Origin: Escherichia phage vB_EcoM_G10400
Sequence record: MK327937.1
DNA length: 64,000 nt
Reading direction: 5' to 3' (one strand)
Shown here piece by piece: positions 1 through 39,311 of the stretch; the first letter of the stretch is position 1, and each line of letters opens with the position of its first letter. A model generated the notes under the pieces. That model was not told the DNA's origin, did no database searches, and was given only the letters and a program-made list of their open reading frames with translations. Both the position numbers and the translations under genes were made by a program.

Positions 1-263
1 AACAACTGTAGGTCTTTATTACTAGAATATTTAAATACACCTAGGTCTTCTAGAAGGTCTGGATTATAATTGCTAAAACCGGTCTCTTCTAAACATTCTC
101 TTCGTGCTGCATCTAATGCGCTTAAATCAGAATTTTCTACACGGCCCTTTGGAATATCCCAACGATGTGCCATCATTCCAGGCTTACGAGAACCAGTAAC
201 CCGACCCATAAATAAATCTTTATCTTCTGTCATAAAAATAATACCAGCTGATAATGTTTTCAT
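1..263 (-). CDS. nudE: Nudix hydrolase (T4 NudE/e.1-like); start codon at 263, 3' end beyond the window
   Basis: Minus-strand translation from ATG (rc of 261-263) gives MKTLSAGIIFMTEDKD...GRVENSDLSALDAARRECLEETG, a Nudix box. Not in the ORF track because it is truncated by the window edge. Confidence 0.7.
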   Translation of the reverse strand, partial: MKTLSAGIIFMTEDKDLFMGRVTGSRKPGMMAHRWDIPKGRVENSDLSALDAARRECLEETGFSNYNPDLLEDLGVFKYSSNKDLQL

Positions 264-748
264 TTTAATTTCCTGCATTCAGTGATAAAGTTATTTAAAT
301 TTTGAGTATATTTCTTTTCATCAAAAATCTTTTGCTGTCTGCGTAACCGCCATGGCATTTCAATGAACGCGCACCATATCCCAGATAATATTGCTGCTGT
401 CAAAATATTAACAAGCATAATTAAAAGAATCCAATCTCCTGTTCTGCCTATTGGACTTTCTCCAAAGAAGCAAAATACGAATGATGACACAGGAAGACTA
501 ATAATATACCACAGAATCATAATTTTATTTGTAAACCAATCAGCATTTGTTAACTTAGCGCGACCGTTTTGAATACATACGAACTTATCATCTGTTATAG
601 TAGATGGCTTAGCTGCTTGATATCCCATTCTAAACTCCCTAATCAAACAAATTTTCATATCTTCGGAACAACCATTCCAGTCAACTCTATCAACTGAAAT
701 GCCATCATCCCCATCATCTAAATCATACCAGCGAGTTTTTAAAATCAT
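260..748 (-). CDS. hypothetical small membrane protein (early region)
   Basis: 162-aa ORF with two hydrophobic segments (IMILWYIISLPVSSFVFCFF, WILLIMLVNILTAAILSGIW); tightly packed with neighbours. Confidence 0.5.
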   Translation of the reverse strand: MILKTRWYDLDDGDDGISVDRVDWNGCSEDMKICLIREFRMGYQAAKPSTITDDKFVCIQNGRAKLTNADWFTNKIMILWYIISLPVSSFVFCFFGESPIGRTGDWILLIMLVNILTAAILSGIWCAFIEMPWRLRRQQKIFDEKKYTQNLNNFITECRKLK

Positions 749-1107
749 TTAATTTTCCTACAATCACTCACAAACTCTTCCATTGATTCTTTTTCAATAT
801 AAGACATGTAGCTATTATATTCTTTTAATTGTATTTTGTAATCTTTTTTTCTTTGCCAATTTATTTTAAAATTATCATAATGAAAATATAACATGGTACC
901 AAAGAATGAAAATAATGAAATCGCTATAGTATAACGAAGTTCACTCCAAACCTCTGTTATAATTACTGTGCCGTCAATGTTTAAAATAAAACAGTCAATT
1001 AACAATCCAATAAGACTACCCGCAAGAGCTGCAAATACTGATACAGCAAGAATTAATAGTGACTCAGGAAACGAATATTTGACTTTATTTAATTTTGGCT
1101 TTTGCAT
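745..1107 (-). CDS. hypothetical small membrane protein
   Basis: 120-aa ORF with hydrophobic segments (LLILAVSVFAALAGSLIGLLI); 4-bp overlap with the downstream gene. Confidence 0.5.
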   Translation of the reverse strand: MQKPKLNKVKYSFPESLLILAVSVFAALAGSLIGLLIDCFILNIDGTVIITEVWSELRYTIAISLFSFFGTMLYFHYDNFKINWQRKKDYKIQLKEYNSYMSYIEKESMEEFVSDCRKIK

Positions 1108-1502
1108 CGTGATTCCTTAACAAATTTCATAATTTCATCAAATTCATACATATCAAGTTTAAGCTGATGTTCTTTTTTAATCTTTTTGCACTGGGCTTTC
1201 CAATCACGTACACGTTTACGATAGTGTCTTCCTTGATACCAGTATCCTATCCAATTTATAGGTACTAATAAAATTGGAACTACAAATGGAAGAATTAGCG
1301 TTGACGCAAATATTGTATTAGATTCAATATCAGTCATAACGTCTATAACCATTCCAGCAATCAGCAGAATCACAAATGATACAGCTACCACAGGACCTAT
1401 TAACACATCAGTAGAAATTATCTGACGCTTTAATTCATACTTCAACGGTTTACTTGGAAGGTATAGTGATGGTTTTGACATATTCTCTGCATTCCTTAAC
1501 AA
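1089..1502 (-). CDS. hypothetical small membrane protein
   Basis: 137-aa ORF with hydrophobic segments (VAVSFVILLIAGMVI, ILPFVVPILLVPINWIGYW). Confidence 0.5.
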   Translation of the reverse strand: MLRNAENMSKPSLYLPSKPLKYELKRQIISTDVLIGPVVAVSFVILLIAGMVIDVMTDIESNTIFASTLILPFVVPILLVPINWIGYWYQGRHYRKRVRDWKAQCKKIKKEHQLKLDMYEFDEIMKFVKESRCKSQN

Positions 1503-2055
1503 ATTTTTCTAATAATAAATCGCTTTCAAAATTGGGATTTTCTACGAATTTATCAAAAAGATCATCAACAATAGTTAAGATATTCTTTTTACTAAGAATA
1601 CGTTTATTTTCATGCTTCGTTTCAGAATCAACTATAAGAGTAAAGAAATATTTCTTGCCCTGAAATTTTACAGTAGTATCAATATAAAATAAATTTGACT
1701 TTTGTAAATTACGTTTAAACCATGTGTCACTTAAACTATAAATACCGAGATAATCATAATCGTCGTTTAAATAACATACTGTCCATTCAGGAGAAATGAA
1801 ATCAGTAAATTCAACATCAAAATCACACGTCAATGAATGAATTGATTCAATACTGTTAATAAGTATTCCAGGACGTATTAAAGACTTTTTACCTTTATAA
1901 AATCCAGAAAGACTTTCATCAGTTTCATATGAAGAACCCCAATAATAATTACGTCCTTCTGCCATACGTTTAAGAGCATTTAGTAATTGGTCTGGAACAT
2001 CAACCTGTCTTTGAAACTCTTCAAACATTGAATTGAAATCACTTTGCATTTTCAT
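1450..2055 (-). CDS. hypothetical protein
   Basis: 201-aa ORF in a co-oriented gene array; followed by GC hairpin ggggcccgaagcccc (~2077-2091). Confidence 0.5.
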   Translation of the reverse strand: MKMQSDFNSMFEEFQRQVDVPDQLLNALKRMAEGRNYYWGSSYETDESLSGFYKGKKSLIRPGILINSIESIHSLTCDFDVEFTDFISPEWTVCYLNDDYDYLGIYSLSDTWFKRNLQKSNLFYIDTTVKFQGKKYFFTLIVDSETKHENKRILSKKNILTIVDDLFDKFVENPNFESDLLLEKFVKECREYVKTITIPSK

Positions 2056-2097
2056 TCCTATTTACTCCAAGTAATAGGGGCCCGAAGCCCCTTATCA

Positions 2098-2691
2098 TTA
2101 TTTCAGAGAATTAATATATTCCTGAACATCGGCAGAGGTAGTTTCAACCCCAGAAATATTACCATTAAAGGTTTCAACTCGAGCAAGAGTATCTTCAATA
2201 TCAACCTTAGTCAGTGCTGCAATTTCAACTACATCATCAGCAGTACTAATTCCAAGGGCATTCGCTGCACGAGTTTCACGGATATATTCCAATTTAACCG
2301 CAAGTTCTTGACGAGCATCATCTAACTCAACTACTTTCTTGGCGATTTCAATTCGCATTTCAGCATAACCGTCAGCCTTAGTAGTCAACTGCTCAGCTGT
2401 TCGACGATATAGTAAACCGAGTTTAGCATGCATTGTTACATCTTGACCTTCGGAAAGAAGCTTGCGAATTTCACGCTCTTTTGATTCGGCTTGCTTATTC
2501 TTTTCGACAATAAGTTCACGAATACGCTTTTCTTCATTAATAGATTTAACGGAAGCAGTTTTTAGATCTTTAATCTTATCAAGTAGTTTTGCTGCCGCAG
2601 CAGTATACTGTTCTTCAACAGATAGATTTTTAGCCATAGCAGAACCAAGTTTAGTGCGAATAAACTCAACAATTTTCTTCAGTGTGTTCAT
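2098..2691 (-). CDS. hypothetical coiled-coil protein (heptad-rich; possibly PspA/IM30-like, unverified)
   Basis: 197-aa ORF rich in K/E/A/L heptads; preceded on minus strand by a GTTTAC -35 and TATTAT -10 early-promoter-like element. Confidence 0.5.
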
Positions 2692-2748
2692 AGTATTTCC
2701 TTAGGTTGGTATAATTAGATAATATCACGTTTCTAATAGATTGTAAAC

Positions 2749-3084
2749 TTATTCTTCGTCTAGCTCGTCGATAAAGGCGTTGATGGCCTCGATAACGGCA
2801 TCATTGATAGCTAATAAAATAAAATCATCGTCAGTACCTTTAGAAGATTCTAAAGCATTGATATATGCTTGGTTGGCGAGTTCCCAAGCCTTTTTAAAAT
2901 AAGGAGCTTCATCATCAGGACAAATATCCCGCACGCCTTCAAAGATACGTTTGGCATAATCTAACACCCATTGTACAGGCATGTTTTGAGAACGTTCGTT
3001 AAACTCTTTAAAGTCCTTAGATTCAAAAAGCTCTTCAGGATAATTATTTCTATTACAAAAAGCTTTGCTAAAATTACGTTTCAT
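2749..3084 (-). CDS. hypothetical protein
   Basis: 111-aa acidic ORF; early-promoter cassette upstream at 3111-3140. Confidence 0.5.
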   Translation of the reverse strand: MKRNFSKAFCNRNNYPEELFESKDFKEFNERSQNMPVQWVLDYAKRIFEGVRDICPDDEAPYFKKAWELANQAYINALESSKGTDDDFILLAINDAVIEAINAFIDELDEE

Positions 3085-3140
3085 AATGTTTTCCTCATTT
3101 GTATAGGCTCATAATATCTCAATCATGAGCCTATGTAAAC

Positions 3141-3416
3141 TTATTTCATATTATTGAAATATTCTTCTGCGATTTCATCGTTATCATGGTAAACTTTAGA
3201 AGACAGTTTAACATAACCTTCAGCAGTGAACATGTTAATCACAACCTTTACAGTATACCACTGACCATCTTCATTACCCATTACTGCGTAAGTTTCAAAC
3301 ATCGGATGATCAGGACCGATAACTTTAATATCATTCACTGTACGACCGAAATCTTCTGAAACACATTTCATAAAGAAGTTGAACAGTTCGCCGTAATTAT
3401 CCATTTCGTTCTCCAA
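3141..3416 (-). CDS. hypothetical protein
   Basis: 91-aa ORF; early-promoter cassette upstream at 3448-3477. Confidence 0.5.
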   Translation of the reverse strand: MENEMDNYGELFNFFMKCVSEDFGRTVNDIKVIGPDHPMFETYAVMGNEDGQWYTVKVVINMFTAEGYVKLSSKVYHDNDEIAEEYFNNMK

Positions 3417-3605
3417 GTTGTTTTCTGTATCAGTAGTTGATAGTTGTATAGTACCATGGAAGAACAGGGATGTAAACAGTTTTGTGAAAAAATTTTTAAA
3501 AAGTTTTAGGGAATTCTAGGGTCAGGAGGGGCAATTAAAAGATAGGATAATATATTATAAAGGGTAGAAACTAAATGATGCCTAGAGAGGCCCGGAAAGG
3601 CCTAG

Positions 3606-3641
3606 ATACCAAAAAGCCCCAACCTTTTGGTCGGGGCTAAG
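3606..3641 (-). terminator. intrinsic terminator hairpin, copy A of a 36-bp repeat
   Basis: ataccaaaaagccccaaccttttggtcggggctaag: on minus strand a GC stem (gcccc/ggggc) followed by a T-run; 35/36 identical to 4165-4200. Confidence 0.6.
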
Positions 3642-3645
3642 AATG

Positions 3646-4119
3646 TTATTTGATTTGTTTAGCAGACCAAATGCGGTCTTTAATAATTTTTTGGATGTCT
3701 TCAACATACTCAAGAGAGTGAGCATGTGGGTTATCTTTGAAACTATAAGCACGAGCTAGCTTTTGGCCTTCAGTTTTGATTACTAAAAGCTCTTTAAGGA
3801 TAGCTTCATATTTAGAGATAATTCCTTTAACAATATTTTTTTCTTGTGCAGCTTTAGGATCTGCTTTAGGAGCAGGTTTACCTGAAGCCTTTGCAAAAGC
3901 AGCGCCAGTAGCAACTAAACTTTTCCAGGCCATACTAACTGCATTTCCCGTAAATCCTTCCGCTTTCATGTCGCGTGCGAACTGGAATCGCGATTCATCA
4001 GAAGCATCTTTATAAGAATATTTACCCGCTGCAATGGCTGCTTTTGCGACAGCTTGAATTTCGGTGCTAGATGCTTCATTTAACACCGCTTCATTTAAAA
4101 ATTGAGTATATGATTTCAT
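3646..4119 (-). CDS. candidate capsid-targeted internal protein (IP-like; N-terminal CTS-like MKSYTQFLNEA with LxE cleavage motifs)
   Basis: 157-aa ORF whose N-terminus resembles the T4 internal-protein capsid-targeting sequence (MKTYQEF-like) with two LNE/A putative gp21 sites; own TATAAATA late promoter on minus strand at 4160-4167; flanked by 36-bp terminator repeats. Confidence 0.5.
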   Translation of the reverse strand: MKSYTQFLNEAVLNEASSTEIQAVAKAAIAAGKYSYKDASDESRFQFARDMKAEGFTGNAVSMAWKSLVATGAAFAKASGKPAPKADPKAAQEKNIVKGIISKYEAILKELLVIKTEGQKLARAYSFKDNPHAHSLEYVEDIQKIIKDRIWSAKQIK

Positions 4120-4159
4120 CTTATTTCCTGTTTTAATTTGTAGATATTTAATATACTAA

Positions 4160-4167
4160 TATTTATA
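4160..4167 (-). promoter_or_regulatory. T4-type late promoter (TATAAATA) for ORF 3646-4119
   Basis: Plus strand tatttata = TATAAATA on minus strand, ~40 nt upstream of the ATG at 4119. Confidence 0.5.
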
Positions 4168-4200
4168 CCAAAAAGCCCCAACCTTTCGGTCGGGGCTAAG
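4165..4200 (-). terminator. intrinsic terminator hairpin, copy B of the 36-bp repeat (end of tRNA/stable-RNA transcript)
   Basis: ataccaaaaagccccaacctttcggtcggggctaag; hairpin plus T-run on minus strand. Confidence 0.6.
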
Positions 4201-4510
4201 CCTTGCGGCAACCTTGTCGGGGTTCCACCTGCTAAGGCAAGTGTTTGTACGAAACGCCGGGATTCGAACCCGGTTATTAAGCAGTTGACGCTACTCAATA
4301 TTTTTAAAAGGCCATATCTCGACCATATCCGAACGTTCCGTCAAAAACACTACTCGGCTTACGGCAAAGATATTTCCTCGAATCGATAATTCGGTGCGCC
4401 GTTTCTGCTGTGATGTAAGAGGGCATCAATAAACGCAAAGATTATTAACGCAATTCCTTACTCAGGGAACATCAGTCCGACGACTTGCCGGTAGCGACCC
4501 GGCTTCTTGT
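4201..4510 (-). ncRNA. tRNA-like stable RNA(s), by position equivalent to T4 species 1/2 RNAs (rnaC/rnaD); boundaries approximate
   Basis: ~310 nt with no credible ORF between tRNA-Arg and the terminator; contains a T-arm-like element (rc of gggattcgaacccgg) but no complete cloverleaf. Confidence 0.35.
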
Positions 4511-4511
4511 C

Positions 4512-4590: not shown

Positions 4591-5256
4591 TTAAAATTTC
4601 ATTTTTCGACCTTTAAACCATCCTTCTGGAATTGGGTCAGTTTTCTTAATACGTTTAGAAACTTTTTCATCTAATGAATGAATCCACATCATGCCAAATT
4701 GGGAATTCTTTTCACCTTGTTGGTGTTTATTTCTGGCGTGAGATTCTTTCATTTTATTAATAGTTTCAGGAGTATGGGTCTTACCCAAGAAAGATTTAGT
4801 ATTTAAAAATTTCTCTCTATACTTAGGATTATCCCAAAGCTGTTTAAACCTTTCTGAACCCATTTTACGATATTTTTCTTTAAGGTCTGGGTCGTTCTCA
4901 AATCTGGTTTTAAAAGCGGCAGCTCCTTTTAAGGAAGCTTCTTTCTTTTTATCCAAATATTCTTTAGTGTTTAAATGGTCCCAACCACCTTCACCACCTA
5001 ATTTCAAATTATAAACATCAGAGCGCTTTAAAAACTCTTCAGTCACAATATTCTTTTCTGACTCAAACATAGAGGTTTTATCGTCAAAGAACTCTAATAT
5101 TTCTTTAGAAAAATTTTCTATACCATACTTATCTTGGGCTCTTTTTAATAATTTACCAGAACCCATATATCCATCATCTAAATTTTCGGTAGAATGAGCG
5201 CCTATATAGATTTTATTATTAATTTTATTTGTTATTTTATAAATGTAATGGAACAT
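4591..5256 (-). CDS. segB: GIY-YIG homing endonuclease (SegB-like) inside the tRNA cluster
   Basis: 221-aa ORF, N-terminus MFHYIYKITNKINNKIYIGAHS...GYMGSG (GIY-YIG motif); position between tRNA-Ile and tRNA-Arg as in T4. Confidence 0.8.
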   Translation of the reverse strand: MFHYIYKITNKINNKIYIGAHSTENLDDGYMGSGKLLKRAQDKYGIENFSKEILEFFDDKTSMFESEKNIVTEEFLKRSDVYNLKLGGEGGWDHLNTKEYLDKKKEASLKGAAAFKTRFENDPDLKEKYRKMGSERFKQLWDNPKYREKFLNTKSFLGKTHTPETINKMKESHARNKHQQGEKNSQFGMMWIHSLDEKVSKRIKKTDPIPEGWFKGRKMKF

Positions 5257-5708: not shown

Positions 5709-5795
5709 TGGTACGAGAAGTGGGACTCGAACCCACAAGGAAATCATTCCGCAGCATTTTAAGTGCTGTGCCTTTACCAATTTGACCATTCTCGC
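5709..5795 (-). tRNA. tRNA-Leu (anticodon UAA), long variable arm, CCA encoded
   Basis: Minus-strand GCGAGAATGGTCAAATTGGTAAAGGCACAGCACTTAAAATGCTG...GGGTTCGAGTCCCACTTCTCGTACCA. Confidence 0.85.
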
Positions 5796-5801
5796 GCTAT
5801 A

Positions 5802-6434
5802 TTATTTATTACGTGAAAAAGACTGTTCTATCAATTCTGGACACTTTCGTTCTATCCATTTTCTAGCTTTTTGTGGGCTTATACCTATTATTTTAGCAGC
5901 TTTACTAACCCATCCAAATTTAGAATAATCGATTTTAACTAATTCTTCGTAAATTTCATCAGTTAAAATCTTTTCATTAATATTTACCAGTAAATGATAT
6001 AATTTATTATCATTAGCAATTTTAATGAATCTTTTATAGTTTCCGCCTTTACTTAAACCTAATGAAGTAATTGCAGATGATATAGTAGCCGAATTTAATA
6101 GTGCGTTTAAAATTTCTTCATCACTAACATTATAACGCTTTTTATTATTTTTAATATTTTTACCAGCAAAAGTATCAGTTTGCGAATGGCAATTTGGACA
6201 TAATAATCTTAAATTTGATTTAAGATGATTTTTGTTATTTCCATCAATATGGTCTAATTGCAGAACAATATGCTTATTTTGCCATTTTGAAATTTTACAA
6301 ATTGCACACTCATATGGAAAAATATTTTCTTTTATTATTTTGTCTTTCAGCTTTCCTGTACTAAAATTTGGATGTTTTCCTTCAAAAATTTCAGCTAATT
6401 TAGTATCCATAATATGATTCCCAATTATTAACAA
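5802..6434 (-). CDS. HNH homing endonuclease-like protein, directly upstream of the tRNA cluster
   Basis: 210-aa ORF with HNH motif region LQLDHIDGNNKNHLKSNLRLLCPNCHSQTD and paired CxxC residues; stop codon 6 nt from the tRNA-Leu 5' end. Confidence 0.7.
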   Translation of the reverse strand: MLIIGNHIMDTKLAEIFEGKHPNFSTGKLKDKIIKENIFPYECAICKISKWQNKHIVLQLDHIDGNNKNHLKSNLRLLCPNCHSQTDTFAGKNIKNNKKRYNVSDEEILNALLNSATISSAITSLGLSKGGNYKRFIKIANDNKLYHLLVNINEKILTDEIYEELVKIDYSKFGWVSKAAKIIGISPQKARKWIERKCPELIEQSFSRNK

Positions 6435-7938: not shown

Positions 7939-8223
7939 TTACAAAAGATTTTTAGCAATAATTTTAAGCTGAGCTACTGAAATATGCTTGGCTTTAAACA
8001 AAGCAGTTTCTTCAGCAGGGGAGATAATGATTGTAGCACCATCTTTCTTAGCGGACCATCCATCACCCAGGTAAACAGTACCTTTAACTTCTTCGCCATC
8101 AACCAGGCTAATCATCGGTTTACCTTCACGTCCTTTGTTTGCTTTAATAACTTCAGAAGTAAGGGTCGCTTCAGTCAAAGTAGAAGCGTTAGTCGTTGAA
8201 GTGAATTCTTGATAAGTTTTCAT
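7939..8223 (-). CDS. ipI: internal protein I-like capsid-targeted protein
   Basis: 94-aa ORF starting MKTYQEF (T4 internal-protein capsid-targeting sequence) with an LTE/A candidate gp21 cleavage site; located next to 57B as ipI is in T4. Confidence 0.65.
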   Translation of the reverse strand: MKTYQEFTSTTNASTLTEATLTSEVIKANKGREGKPMISLVDGEEVKGTVYLGDGWSAKKDGATIIISPAEETALFKAKHISVAQLKIIAKNLL

Positions 8224-37408: not shown

Positions 37409-37833
37409 TGCTTCTGATCCCTGAAACTCATGAATTAGTTCTCGAGAATGTCGAAGCACTTATTCCTGAAGCACAGGGTCGCTTTGACGAATTGTCTTCT
37501 GCTTTAAATAAAGACGATATAAATACAATTGTCGAGAATATGCTTGATGATGAAACTGATTTAGCGGTTGCATTAGCTTCTATTAATGAAAATATGCCGT
37601 TAAATGAATTTATCGTTAAACATGTTTCTGCCCGTGGTGAAATTACTCGCACTAAAGATCGCAAAACCCGCGAACGTAATGCATTTCAAACTACCGGGTT
37701 GTCTAAAGCAAAACGTAGACAAATTGCTCGTAAAGCTACCAAAACGAAGATTGCCAATCCAGCAGGTCAATCTCGTGCTCAGCGTAAGCGTAAAAAAGCT
37801 CTTAAACGCCGTAAAGCATTAGGATTAAGCTAA
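37408..37833 (+). CDS. 68: prohead core protein gp68
   Basis: 141 aa with a basic C-terminal tail; order 67-68-21. Confidence 0.8.
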
Positions 37834-38471
37834 TGAATGAACCCCAATTACTAATTGAAACTTGGGGTCAACCTGGCGAAATTATTGATGGCGTACCAAT
37901 GCTTGAATCTCATGATGGAAAAGACTTAGGTTTAAAACCGGGTTTATACATCGAAGGAATATTCATGCAAGCGGAAGTCGTCAATAGAAATAAACGTCTT
38001 TATCCAAAACGTATATTAGAAAAAGCGGTAAAAGACTATATTAATGAGCAAGTTTTAACTAAACAAGCTCTCGGAGAATTAAATCATCCTCCACGCGCTA
38101 ATGTTGACCCGATGCAAGCCGCTATCATTATAGAAGATATGTGGTGGAAAGGAAATGACGTATACGGACGAGCTCGTGTTATTGAAGGTGACCACGGTCC
38201 TGGAGATAAATTAGCAGCTAATATTCGTGCCGGATGGATTCCAGGAGTTTCTTCTCGTGGATTAGGTTCATTGACTGACACAAATAAAGGTTATCGTATC
38301 GTAAACGAAGGATTCAAATTAACTGTAGGTGTTGATGCAGTATGGGGTCCAAGTGCTCCAGATGCATGGGTAACTCCTAAGGAAATTACCGAATCACAGA
38401 CGGCGGAAGCCGATACAAGTGCCGATGACGCCTATATGGCTCTCGCAGAGGCCATGAAAAAAGCGTTATAA
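37833..38471 (+). CDS. 21: prohead core protease gp21
   Basis: 212 aa; length and order match T4. Confidence 0.9.
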   Translation: MNEPQLLIETWGQPGEIIDGVPMLESHDGKDLGLKPGLYIEGIFMQAEVVNRNKRLYPKRILEKAVKDYINEQVLTKQALGELNHPPRANVDPMQAAIIIEDMWWKGNDVYGRARVIEGDHGPGDKLAANIRAGWIPGVSSRGLGSLTDTNKGYRIVNEGFKLTVGVDAVWGPSAPDAWVTPKEITESQTAEADTSADDAYMALAEAMKKAL

Positions 38472-38501: not shown

Positions 38502-39311
38502 ATGCTTAAAGAACAACTGATTGCCGAAGCGCAGAAAATTGATGCTTCCGTTGCTCTTGATAGTATTTTCGAATCAGTTAATATTTCTCCGGAAGCAAAA
38601 GAAACTTTCGGCACTGTATTCGAAGCTACCGTCAAGCAGCACGCCGTTAAATTAGCTGAATCTCATATCGCTAAAATTGCTGAAAAAGCAGAAGAAGAAG
38701 TAGAAAAAAATAAAGAAGAAGCAGAAGAAAAAGCTGAGAAGAAAATCGCTGAGCAAGCTTCTAAATTCCTTGACCATCTTGCAAAAGAATGGCTCACTGA
38801 AAATAAATTAGCAGTAGATAAAGGTATCAAAGCCGAACTGTTTGAATCCATGCTTGGTGGATTGAAAGAGCTCTTCGTTGAACACAACGTTGTTGTTCCA
38901 GAAGAATCAGTTGATGTTGTAGCTGAAATGGAAGAAGAACTGCAAGAACATAAAGAAGAATCAGCTCGTCTGTTCGAAGAACTCAATAAGCGTGACGCAT
39001 ATATCAATTATGTGCAGCGTGAAGTGGCATTGAGCGAAAGTACTAAAGATCTGACTGAGTCTCAAAAAGAAAAAGTCTCTGCTCTGGTCGAAGGTATGGA
39101 TTATTCAGATGCATTCTCAAGTAAATTGAGTGCAATCGTAGAAATGGTGAAGAAATCTAATAAAGATGAAAGCACTATTACTGAGAGTATAAATACTCCT
39201 GATACTGAAGCAGCCGGACTGAATTTCGTCACTGAAGCTGTAGAAGATAAATCTGCACAAGGTGCAGAAGATATTGTAAGTGTATATGCGAAAGTCGCAT
39301 CTCGTTTCTAA
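38502..39311 (+). CDS. 22: prohead core scaffold protein gp22
   Basis: 269 aa, acidic coiled-coil; length and order match T4. Confidence 0.9.
   Translation: MLKEQLIAEAQKIDASVALDSIFESVNISPEAKETFGTVFEATVKQHAVKLAESHIAKIAEKAEEEVEKNKEEAEEKAEKKIAEQASKFLDHLAKEWLTENKLAVDKGIKAELFESMLGGLKELFVEHNVVVPEESVDVVAEMEEELQEHKEESARLFEELNKRDAYINYVQREVALSESTKDLTESQKEKVSALVEGMDYSDAFSSKLSAIVEMVKKSNKDESTITESINTPDTEAAGLNFVTEAVEDKSAQGAEDIVSVYAKVASRF

Follow-up and report, generated by a model that had tools for sequence, protein, structure and literature searches.

Escherichia phage vB_EcoM_G10400 appears to encode an internal head protein that has so far gone unrecognized. The gene in question, a 157-codon open reading frame (ORF) that we call ORF157, lies on the minus strand of a 64,000-nt stretch of DNA from this phage (record MK327937.1), which as a whole is referred to here as the window. 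It comes from the genome of a Tequatrovirus (a T4-like phage), and the genes around ORF157 lie on the minus strand and in T4 order. On balance, we favor the reading that ORF157 is an internal protein (IP) of the T4 type: that it is made late, targeted through an N-terminal leader, trimmed by the gp21 protease, retained in the head, and injected. This reading draws on the match of its leader to a functionally mapped targeting sequence, on its late promoter motif, and on the detection of a nearly identical protein in virions of phage fD1.

ORF157 is a conserved gene with its own late promoter motif and terminators

ORF157 is a real gene under purifying selection. The ratio of nonsynonymous to synonymous substitution rates (dN/dS) is 0.04-0.08 in comparisons with RB68, JLBYU22, G4507, and PhAPEC2 (a Mosigvirus), with synonymous divergence (dS) reaching 1.7 for PhAPEC2. 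The start codon is preceded by a ribosome-binding site and, further upstream, by the T4-type late promoter motif TATAAATA (Table 1). Only its short length and its lack of an annotated function would suggest a chance reading frame caught between two copies of a duplicated terminator. We regard this explanation as excluded by the strength of selection, by the ribosome-binding site and promoter motif, and by homology and expression: a profile search of about 1.8 billion representative proteins returned 13 related clusters at E ≤ 0.001, tblastn finds homologs in T4-like phages of several genera, and peptides have been detected using liquid chromatography-tandem mass spectrometry (LC-MS/MS).

The gene is flanked by two 36-nt direct repeats that are identical at 35 of their 36 positions. 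On the minus strand, each forms a terminator hairpin with a 10-bp stem (seven G-C pairs) and a 4-nt loop, followed by UUUUU. The hairpins fold with -21.5 and -19.5 kcal/mol (z about -3.8), a stability matched by none of 200 shuffled sequences. The first three bases of the promoter motif fall within the upstream repeat copy. A first-pass annotation of the window had described the ORF, the promoter motif, and the pair of hairpins, and we recovered each of them at the positions in Table 1. With this arrangement, ORF157 would be transcribed only late, from its own promoter.

The ORF157 protein is basic (pI 9.5), with a predicted mature form of 142-147 aa and about 15.5-16 kDa. An AlphaFold2 (AF2) model of moderate confidence (predicted local distance difference test, pLDDT, 76.7) is all-helical. 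In this model, a low-confidence leader with little regular structure (residues 1-17) is followed by a three-helix domain (18-71), a linker, and a long helical hairpin (88-154). The linker, composed of Lys, Pro, and Ala, is KASGKPAPKADPK (also given as KASGKPAPKADPKAAQEK). Searches of Pfam, NCBIfam, PADLOC, and PDB sequences gave no informative match; the two sub-threshold matches (E about 0.1) lie far below the curated cut-offs.

The N-terminus matches a capsid-targeting sequence

Amber-suppressor mutagenesis of IPIII has assigned leader positions 4 and 7 to targeting and positions 8 and 10 to processing (PMC9026906). ORF157 matches all four of these experimentally critical positions of the capsid-targeting sequence (CTS), with Y4, F7, L8, and E10, and has an alanine after E10. 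Across the whole decamer, its MKSYTQFLNE agrees with the MKTYQEFIAE of IPII and IPIII at M1, K2, Y4, F7, [L/I]8, and E10. The corresponding leader starts are MKTYQEFIAE/A in T4 IPII and IPIII, MKTYQEFITE/A in RB68 Ip4, and MKTYKEFATE/T in RB68 Ip5 (the slash marks the cleavage site). Of the 558 ORFs in the window that begin with Met and encode at least 40 aa, ORF157 is the sole match to the pattern MK[ST][YF]x[EQ]FxxE, and we do not take this match for a coincidence.

A second L-x-E site in ORF157, AVLNE/A, repeats the first, QFLNE/A. The same combination of L-x-E and a small residue occurs in the head shell proteins of the phage, which are otherwise unrelated to ORF157: gp23 contains GSFLTE/AEIGG and gp24 contains ELLRE/S, and we take FLTE/A and LLRE/S to be their maturation cleavage sites, as established for T4. 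A conserved ASS(S/T)(D/E)(V/I) start in homologs of ORF157 is preceded by a single L-x-E site (as in MKSYAEFLTE/QSS and MKFKEFLAE/ASS) or by a pair, an arrangement to be expected of a removable propeptide. The first-pass annotation had pointed to a capsid-targeting-like N-terminus with two L-x-E/A motifs, and the comparisons made here support the view that this N-terminus is a good candidate CTS.

We propose that the leader would dock the ORF157 protein on the prohead scaffolding core, and that gp21 would then cut after Glu10 and/or Glu15 (LNE/A). This cut would free a basic, all-helical protein of ~15.5 kDa comprising the three-helix domain, the Lys/Pro/Ala linker, and the helical hairpin. 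The mature protein would be kept in the head with the DNA and injected alongside it. Both gp21, the enzyme expected to cut the leader off, and the gp22 scaffold are encoded in the window (Table 1).

A nearly identical protein is detected in purified virions

Phage fD1 (= phiD1, HE956711.1) encodes a 157-aa protein, g140 (67942-68415), that is 99.4% identical to ORF157. This protein was found by LC-MS/MS in purified virions, where it is classed as 'PPAP' at the strict threshold, and the same table remarks that T4 expresses nothing similar (PMC8309999, Table S3). We consider this detection supportive, with low specificity. Because the search was fully tryptic, the fD1 data are uninformative on leader removal. 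For ORF157, the intact leader is predicted to give the tryptic peptide SYTQFLNEAVLNEASSTEIQAVAK, and the leaderless protein the semi-tryptic peptide AVLNEASSTEIQAVAK or ASSTEIQAVAK.

ORF157 belongs to a widespread family with a conserved genomic position

ORF157 matches PHROG 2280 along its entire length (2.2e-60; residues 1-157 on profile positions 1-172 of 178). The function of this family is given as unknown in the PHROG annotation, and its reading as an internal-protein family is proposed here. Other members include ORF187, a second leader-bearing protein described below (= PhAPEC2_133, related to RB69ORF149c and RB14ncORF136c), gp153 and gp154 of fHe-Yen9-01, and Klebsiella phage KP1_122. 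The hosts of the T4-like phages with named homologs are Escherichia, Shigella, Salmonella, Yersinia, Klebsiella, Enterobacter, Erwinia, Serratia, and relatives of these. Family members share only 22-50% identity in their mature parts; the columns with no or almost no variation are M1, F7, and L8 in the leader, together with F47, G55, K66, F75, and K85.

The gene is common, being present in about 450-500 phage records, and is thus unrecognized rather than rare. Phage records with a match to the locus number 635; the best is 98.6% identical, and 452 contain the whole ORF157-bearing stretch. A tblastn search with the protein matches 511 records (469 at ≥ 80% coverage). The exact ORF157 protein is present in public databases as 'hypothetical protein', the label also carried by RB32ORF132c, phiD1 g140, and essentially every other homolog. 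The one exception we saw is a UniRef entry for a Klebsiella phage homolog, named 'Internal head protein'. Some phages have truncated homolog entries that read like frameshifted copies. IMG/VR scans with two distant homologs (P0017 and P0019) gave no matches, we found no mention of RB32ORF132c in the literature, the ORF157 protein is not present in the supplements of Silas et al. 2025, and the fPS-2/fPS-65 paper contains no proteomics.

The position of the gene is conserved along with its sequence. The order of tRNA cluster, terminator, late promoter, leader-bearing ORF, and terminator is found in at least seven Tevenvirinae lineages. In PhAPEC2, a variant terminator is present in two copies, and the gene lies between them, after rnaC, with AATAAATA at -37. 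In KP1 (Jiaodavirus), TATAAATA at -44 directly adjoins the terminator that follows the tRNA cluster; next come an ORF beginning MKFKEFLAE... and another terminator. fHe-Yen9-01 (Tegunavirus) carries tandem paralogs, gp154 (MLQYNEFLKE...) and gp153 (MLEYSEFLKE...), after a terminator and TATAAATA at -38. Annotated tRNA genes lie no more than about 0.5-0.6 kb upstream in CW742 (Karamvirus; leader MKPFSEFLNE) and in Gravdalen and X20 (Winklervirus; leader MKFKEFLSE), with the X20 copy interrupted. In these three phages and in the unclassified Yersinia phage MHG19 (leader MLNFNEFLAE), a hairpin is followed by TATAAATA or CATAAATA about 30-35 nt before the start. Homologs in six lineages other than that of the window are preceded by TATAAATA or its ATAAATA core at a distance of 31-48 nt.

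The first-pass annotation had seen here a self-contained cassette inserted next to the tRNA/stable-RNA cluster. The self-contained character holds, with a promoter and terminators of its own and absence from T2, T4, and T6; a recent insertion of a foreign cassette, however, is ruled out by the synteny conserved across at least seven lineages. Such wide synteny therefore suggests that the gene is ancestral, a direction that we infer, and it was probably lost from the classical T-evens.

In some Tequatroviruses (JLBYU22, RB14, and Shfl2) and some Mosigviruses, a second cassette lies directly downstream of ORF157. Its gene, ORF187, encodes 187 aa beginning MKTYAEFLTE/AAKLP and has its own terminator; it is absent from the window. 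In the extracted loci, ORF187 occupies 385-948 in JLBYU22 (L011), 3089-3652 in PhAPEC2 (L005), and 2851-3413 in RB69 (L010), the last of which has only a split version of the gene (ORF149c/148c). ORF187 is found in 165 records, and its 95-99% identity across Tequatro- and Mosigviruses suggests recent exchange between the two genera. The locus thus holds zero, one, or two cassettes. The possibility that ORF187 is an IP unrelated to ORF157 was also considered: in an hhalign comparison based on a shallow profile, the resemblance was confined to the leader, yet PHROG 2280 unites the two, and we therefore treat them as distant paralogs.

T2, T4, and T6 share a precise empty site

The comparison of T-even relatives that the first-pass annotation had proposed reveals presence and absence of the gene between the repeats, with T2, T4, and T6 empty. 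T4 has a single terminator copy between e.8 and rnaC and lacks 559 bp of the window, comprising one repeat, the promoter, and ORF157. The sequence on either side of this copy corresponds, at every base, to that left of the 3606 copy and that right of the 4165 copy in the window. T2 and T6 have exactly the same empty site, with one repeat and identical flanks. Because the repeat boundary cuts through the promoter (GGTAT is followed by AAATA in the filled site and by CTAGG in the empty one), the empty site is also without the late promoter.

The two terminator repeats would let the gene drop out by homologous recombination, yielding the site seen in these three phages. Deletion between the repeats is most simply the origin of the empty site, with a direction of change that, again, we infer. 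The locus would then show how duplicated terminators permit precise gene loss.

The downstream terminator of the window is itself hybrid-like in comparison with JLBYU22: its stem is as found after ORF157 in two-cassette phages, and its tail (TTTTTGGTATCTAGGCC) as found after ORF187. Such a hybrid fits stepwise loss of cassettes by recombination between terminators.

ORF157 resembles known internal proteins in its leader and differs in locus and regulation

Features by which internal proteins can be recognized from sequence are all found for ORF157: a CTS leader, gp21 and gp22 in the same phage, a small and basic product, and variable presence among T-evens, where its absence from T2, T4, and T6 marks it as non-essential. 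In these respects it is like IPII and IPIII (and Ip4 and Ip5 of RB68, T2, and T6), with which it shares leader residues 1, 2, 4, 7, and 10, an equivalent residue 8 (Leu for Ile), and the alanine after the cleavage glutamate.

The locus of ORF157, in contrast, is a third one, with the rnaC terminator on one side and e.8 on the other. Genes for the known proteins lie next to 57B (ipI) and near e/denV (ipII and ipIII), in what recent work describes as "two Ip loci" (PMC12373910); residence in either locus is not a functional requirement. ORF157 further differs in its canonical late promoter and its own pair of terminators, in the spread of its family over many Tevenvirinae genera with tandem paralogs, and in that its cleavage and injection are predicted from sequence. 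The classical IP genes (T4 ipI, ipII, and ipIII, RB68 Ip4 and Ip5, and the ipI of the window) instead have early-type GTTTACA...TATACT-like motifs upstream. The leader of the IPI homolog in the window reads MKTYQEFTSTTNASTLTE/A.

T4 IPI (PF11634, a GmrSD inhibitor) is likewise leader-bearing and comes from the same phage group, and the processed protein, IPI*, has an alpha/beta fold (PMC3012670), in contrast to the all-helical prediction for ORF157. The two have no sequence or fold relationship, and a link of ORF157 to GmrSD is by analogy only. The IPI Pfam model PF11634 does not match ORF157, and hhalign against T4 IPIII aligns the leader region only, with 2% probability. We therefore rejected kinship to IPI, IPII, IPIII, Ip4, and Ip5 beyond the leader, on tests against IPIII (hhalign) and the IPI Pfam model only; Ip4 and Ip5 belong to PHROGs other than 2280, and IPII was compared by eye only. 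Regarding the earlier proposal of a novel internal protein, the candidacy stands on the CTS leader, the lack of a known function, and the 99.4%-identical virion protein of fD1, while the family is common and its gene is probably ancestral rather than newly inserted.

Evidence against packaging and alternative roles

Several observations weigh against an injected internal protein. First, the table that lists fD1 g140 flags 113-137 of 277 phage proteins together with 672 host proteins, and DenV, lysozyme, and NudE are among the entries (PMC8309999). Second, the case for leader removal is a sequence motif only (LNE/A, twice), and injection is deduced. Third, the leaders of other genera deviate at positions 2-4 (ML.Y, M-KFKEF). 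Fourth, TATAAATA is absent within 90 nt upstream of each of the classical IP genes named above, so that regulation differs. Fifth, whereas the ipI and ipII/III loci are hypervariable, this family keeps a single fixed position in many genera, and this could mean a more conserved, non-defense role. Finally, the structure prediction put forward in the first-pass annotation as a check did yield a helical model, but fold searches with ORF157 returned no functional clue.

The breadth of the fD1 table, with its host proteins and many non-structural phage proteins, would suit a late cytoplasmic protein that is not packaged at all. Its virion signal would then be carry-over, and its CTS-like N-terminus a relic of IP recombination or a coincidence at the translation start; leader positions 3, 5, 6, and 9, which differ from the canonical MKTYQEFIAE, are compatible with this. 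We consider such a protein decidedly improbable. In genera whose mature parts are only 22-30% identical, no part of the family is better conserved than the leader. The leader of ORF157 matches at all four functionally mapped positions, no other ORF of the window has the motif, and the exclusively late promoter motifs fit a head component.

Alternatively, ORF157 could be packaged and serve a structural role, as a Lys/Ala-rich, histone-like protein that neutralizes or organizes head DNA or aids core assembly, with any effect after injection being incidental. Its basic character, its KASGKPAPKADPKAAQEK linker, and its helical fold are in keeping with this role, as are the contacts of T4 IP lysines with DNA phosphates (PMC3012670) and the occurrence at a single position in at least seven lineages, a degree of conservation beyond that of typical IP genes. 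The dispensability of ORF157 in T2, T4, and T6 argues otherwise, together with the fast evolution of the mature region between genera (22-50% identity), the tandem paralogs of some phages, and the finding that all three functionally tested T4 IPs are specific defense inhibitors. We judge a structural role to be unlikely and continue to favor an injected internal protein.

A possible role in counter-defense

Because each of Ip1, Ip2, and Ip3 of T4 counters a GmrSD type IV restriction enzyme of its own (PMC12373910; PMC9391042), an anti-defense role for ORF157 is plausible by analogy, if short of probable. In this most speculative step of our proposal, the injected protein would disable a first-line host defense. 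The same precedent makes each further leader-bearing protein a ready-made candidate inhibitor of an as yet unidentified first-line defense.

A broader proposal is offered tentatively. PHROG 2280 may mark a third IP locus, ancestral to the Tevenvirinae, that follows the tRNA/small-RNA cluster and holds zero to two late cassettes. Their injected products would neutralize defenses other than the GmrSD variants countered by Ip1-3, and the locus would have been missed since T2, T4, and T6 lost it. Absence from these three laboratory T-evens probably explains the lasting "hypothetical" label of a family found widely among T4-like phages, both therapeutic and environmental, that infect Escherichia, Shigella, Yersinia, Klebsiella, Enterobacter, Serratia, and Erwinia. 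T2, T4, and T6 are also natural nulls with a clean empty site, and a gain-of-function test is therefore straightforward. ORF157 is unsurprising in principle, yet it is a concrete and easily testable candidate.

Gene order and the neighboring tRNA cluster

Beyond the rnaC and rnaD homologs, the window continues with tRNA-Arg, a GIY-YIG SegB-like gene, six more tRNAs, trna.2-4-type ORFs, the IPI homolog, and 57B (Table 1). At the gathering threshold, Rfam recognized nothing but tRNAs around the locus, and the rnaC and rnaD homologs had no match. In the public record of G4507, a stretch at about the place of these homologs, directly upstream of the rnaC-side terminator, is labeled 'tRNA-Lys(ttt)'.

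Table 1. Positions of ORF157, its signals, and other features in the 64,000-nt window
Feature	Position	Strand	Remarks
e.2 to e.8	260-3416	minus	
Early-type promoter for e.8	3448-3476		
Downstream repeat copy	3606-3641	minus	Terminator hairpin, stem 3615-3638; closes the ORF157 transcript, ahead of the e.8 early promoter
ORF157 coding sequence (PHROG 2280)	3646-4119	minus	157 aa, ATG start; begins MKSYTQFLNEAVLNEA
Leader codons 1-15, MKSYTQFLNE/AVLNE/A	4075-4119	minus	Two L-x-E sites, after residues 10 and 15
Ribosome-binding site AGGA	4126-4129	minus	6 nt upstream of ATG; direct reading
T4-type late promoter motif TATAAATA	4160-4167	minus	Plus strand: tatttata; 48 nt upstream of ATG
Upstream repeat copy	4165-4200	minus	Terminator hairpin, stem 4174-4197; closes the tRNA/rnaC transcription unit; counterpart of the one copy in T2, T4, and T6
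rnaC and rnaD small-RNA homologs	about 4248-4386 and 4392-4511	minus	By offset from RB68 and T4 annotations
GIY-YIG SegB-like homing endonuclease gene	4591-5256	minus	Between tRNA-Arg and tRNA-Met
tRNA-Leu	5709-5795		
210-aa HNH-like ORF	5802-6434	minus	
IPI homolog	7939-8223	minus	Pfam IPI_T4 3.5e-51
gp21 prohead protease homolog	37833-38471	plus	Pfam Peptidase_S77 1.5e-111
gp22 scaffold	38502-39311		T4_CASP 5.2e-90

Two endonuclease-like genes lie within the tRNA cluster. The SegB-like gene is in the same tRNA interval as in T4. The 210-aa ORF beside tRNA-Leu contains an HNH-like motif by eye (CAICK...DHIDGNNKNH...LCPNCH), has no Pfam match at E ≤ 0.001, and occupies the exact place of the T4 tRNA-Gln, which is absent from the seven tRNAs of the window. 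Homology to T4 stops at the 5′ end of tRNA-Leu, next to this ORF, and the arrangement looks like a homing-endonuclease-type replacement of tRNA-Gln. Because the tRNA set of the window differs from those of T4, T2, T6, and RB68, the tRNA cluster is highly mosaic among these relatives.

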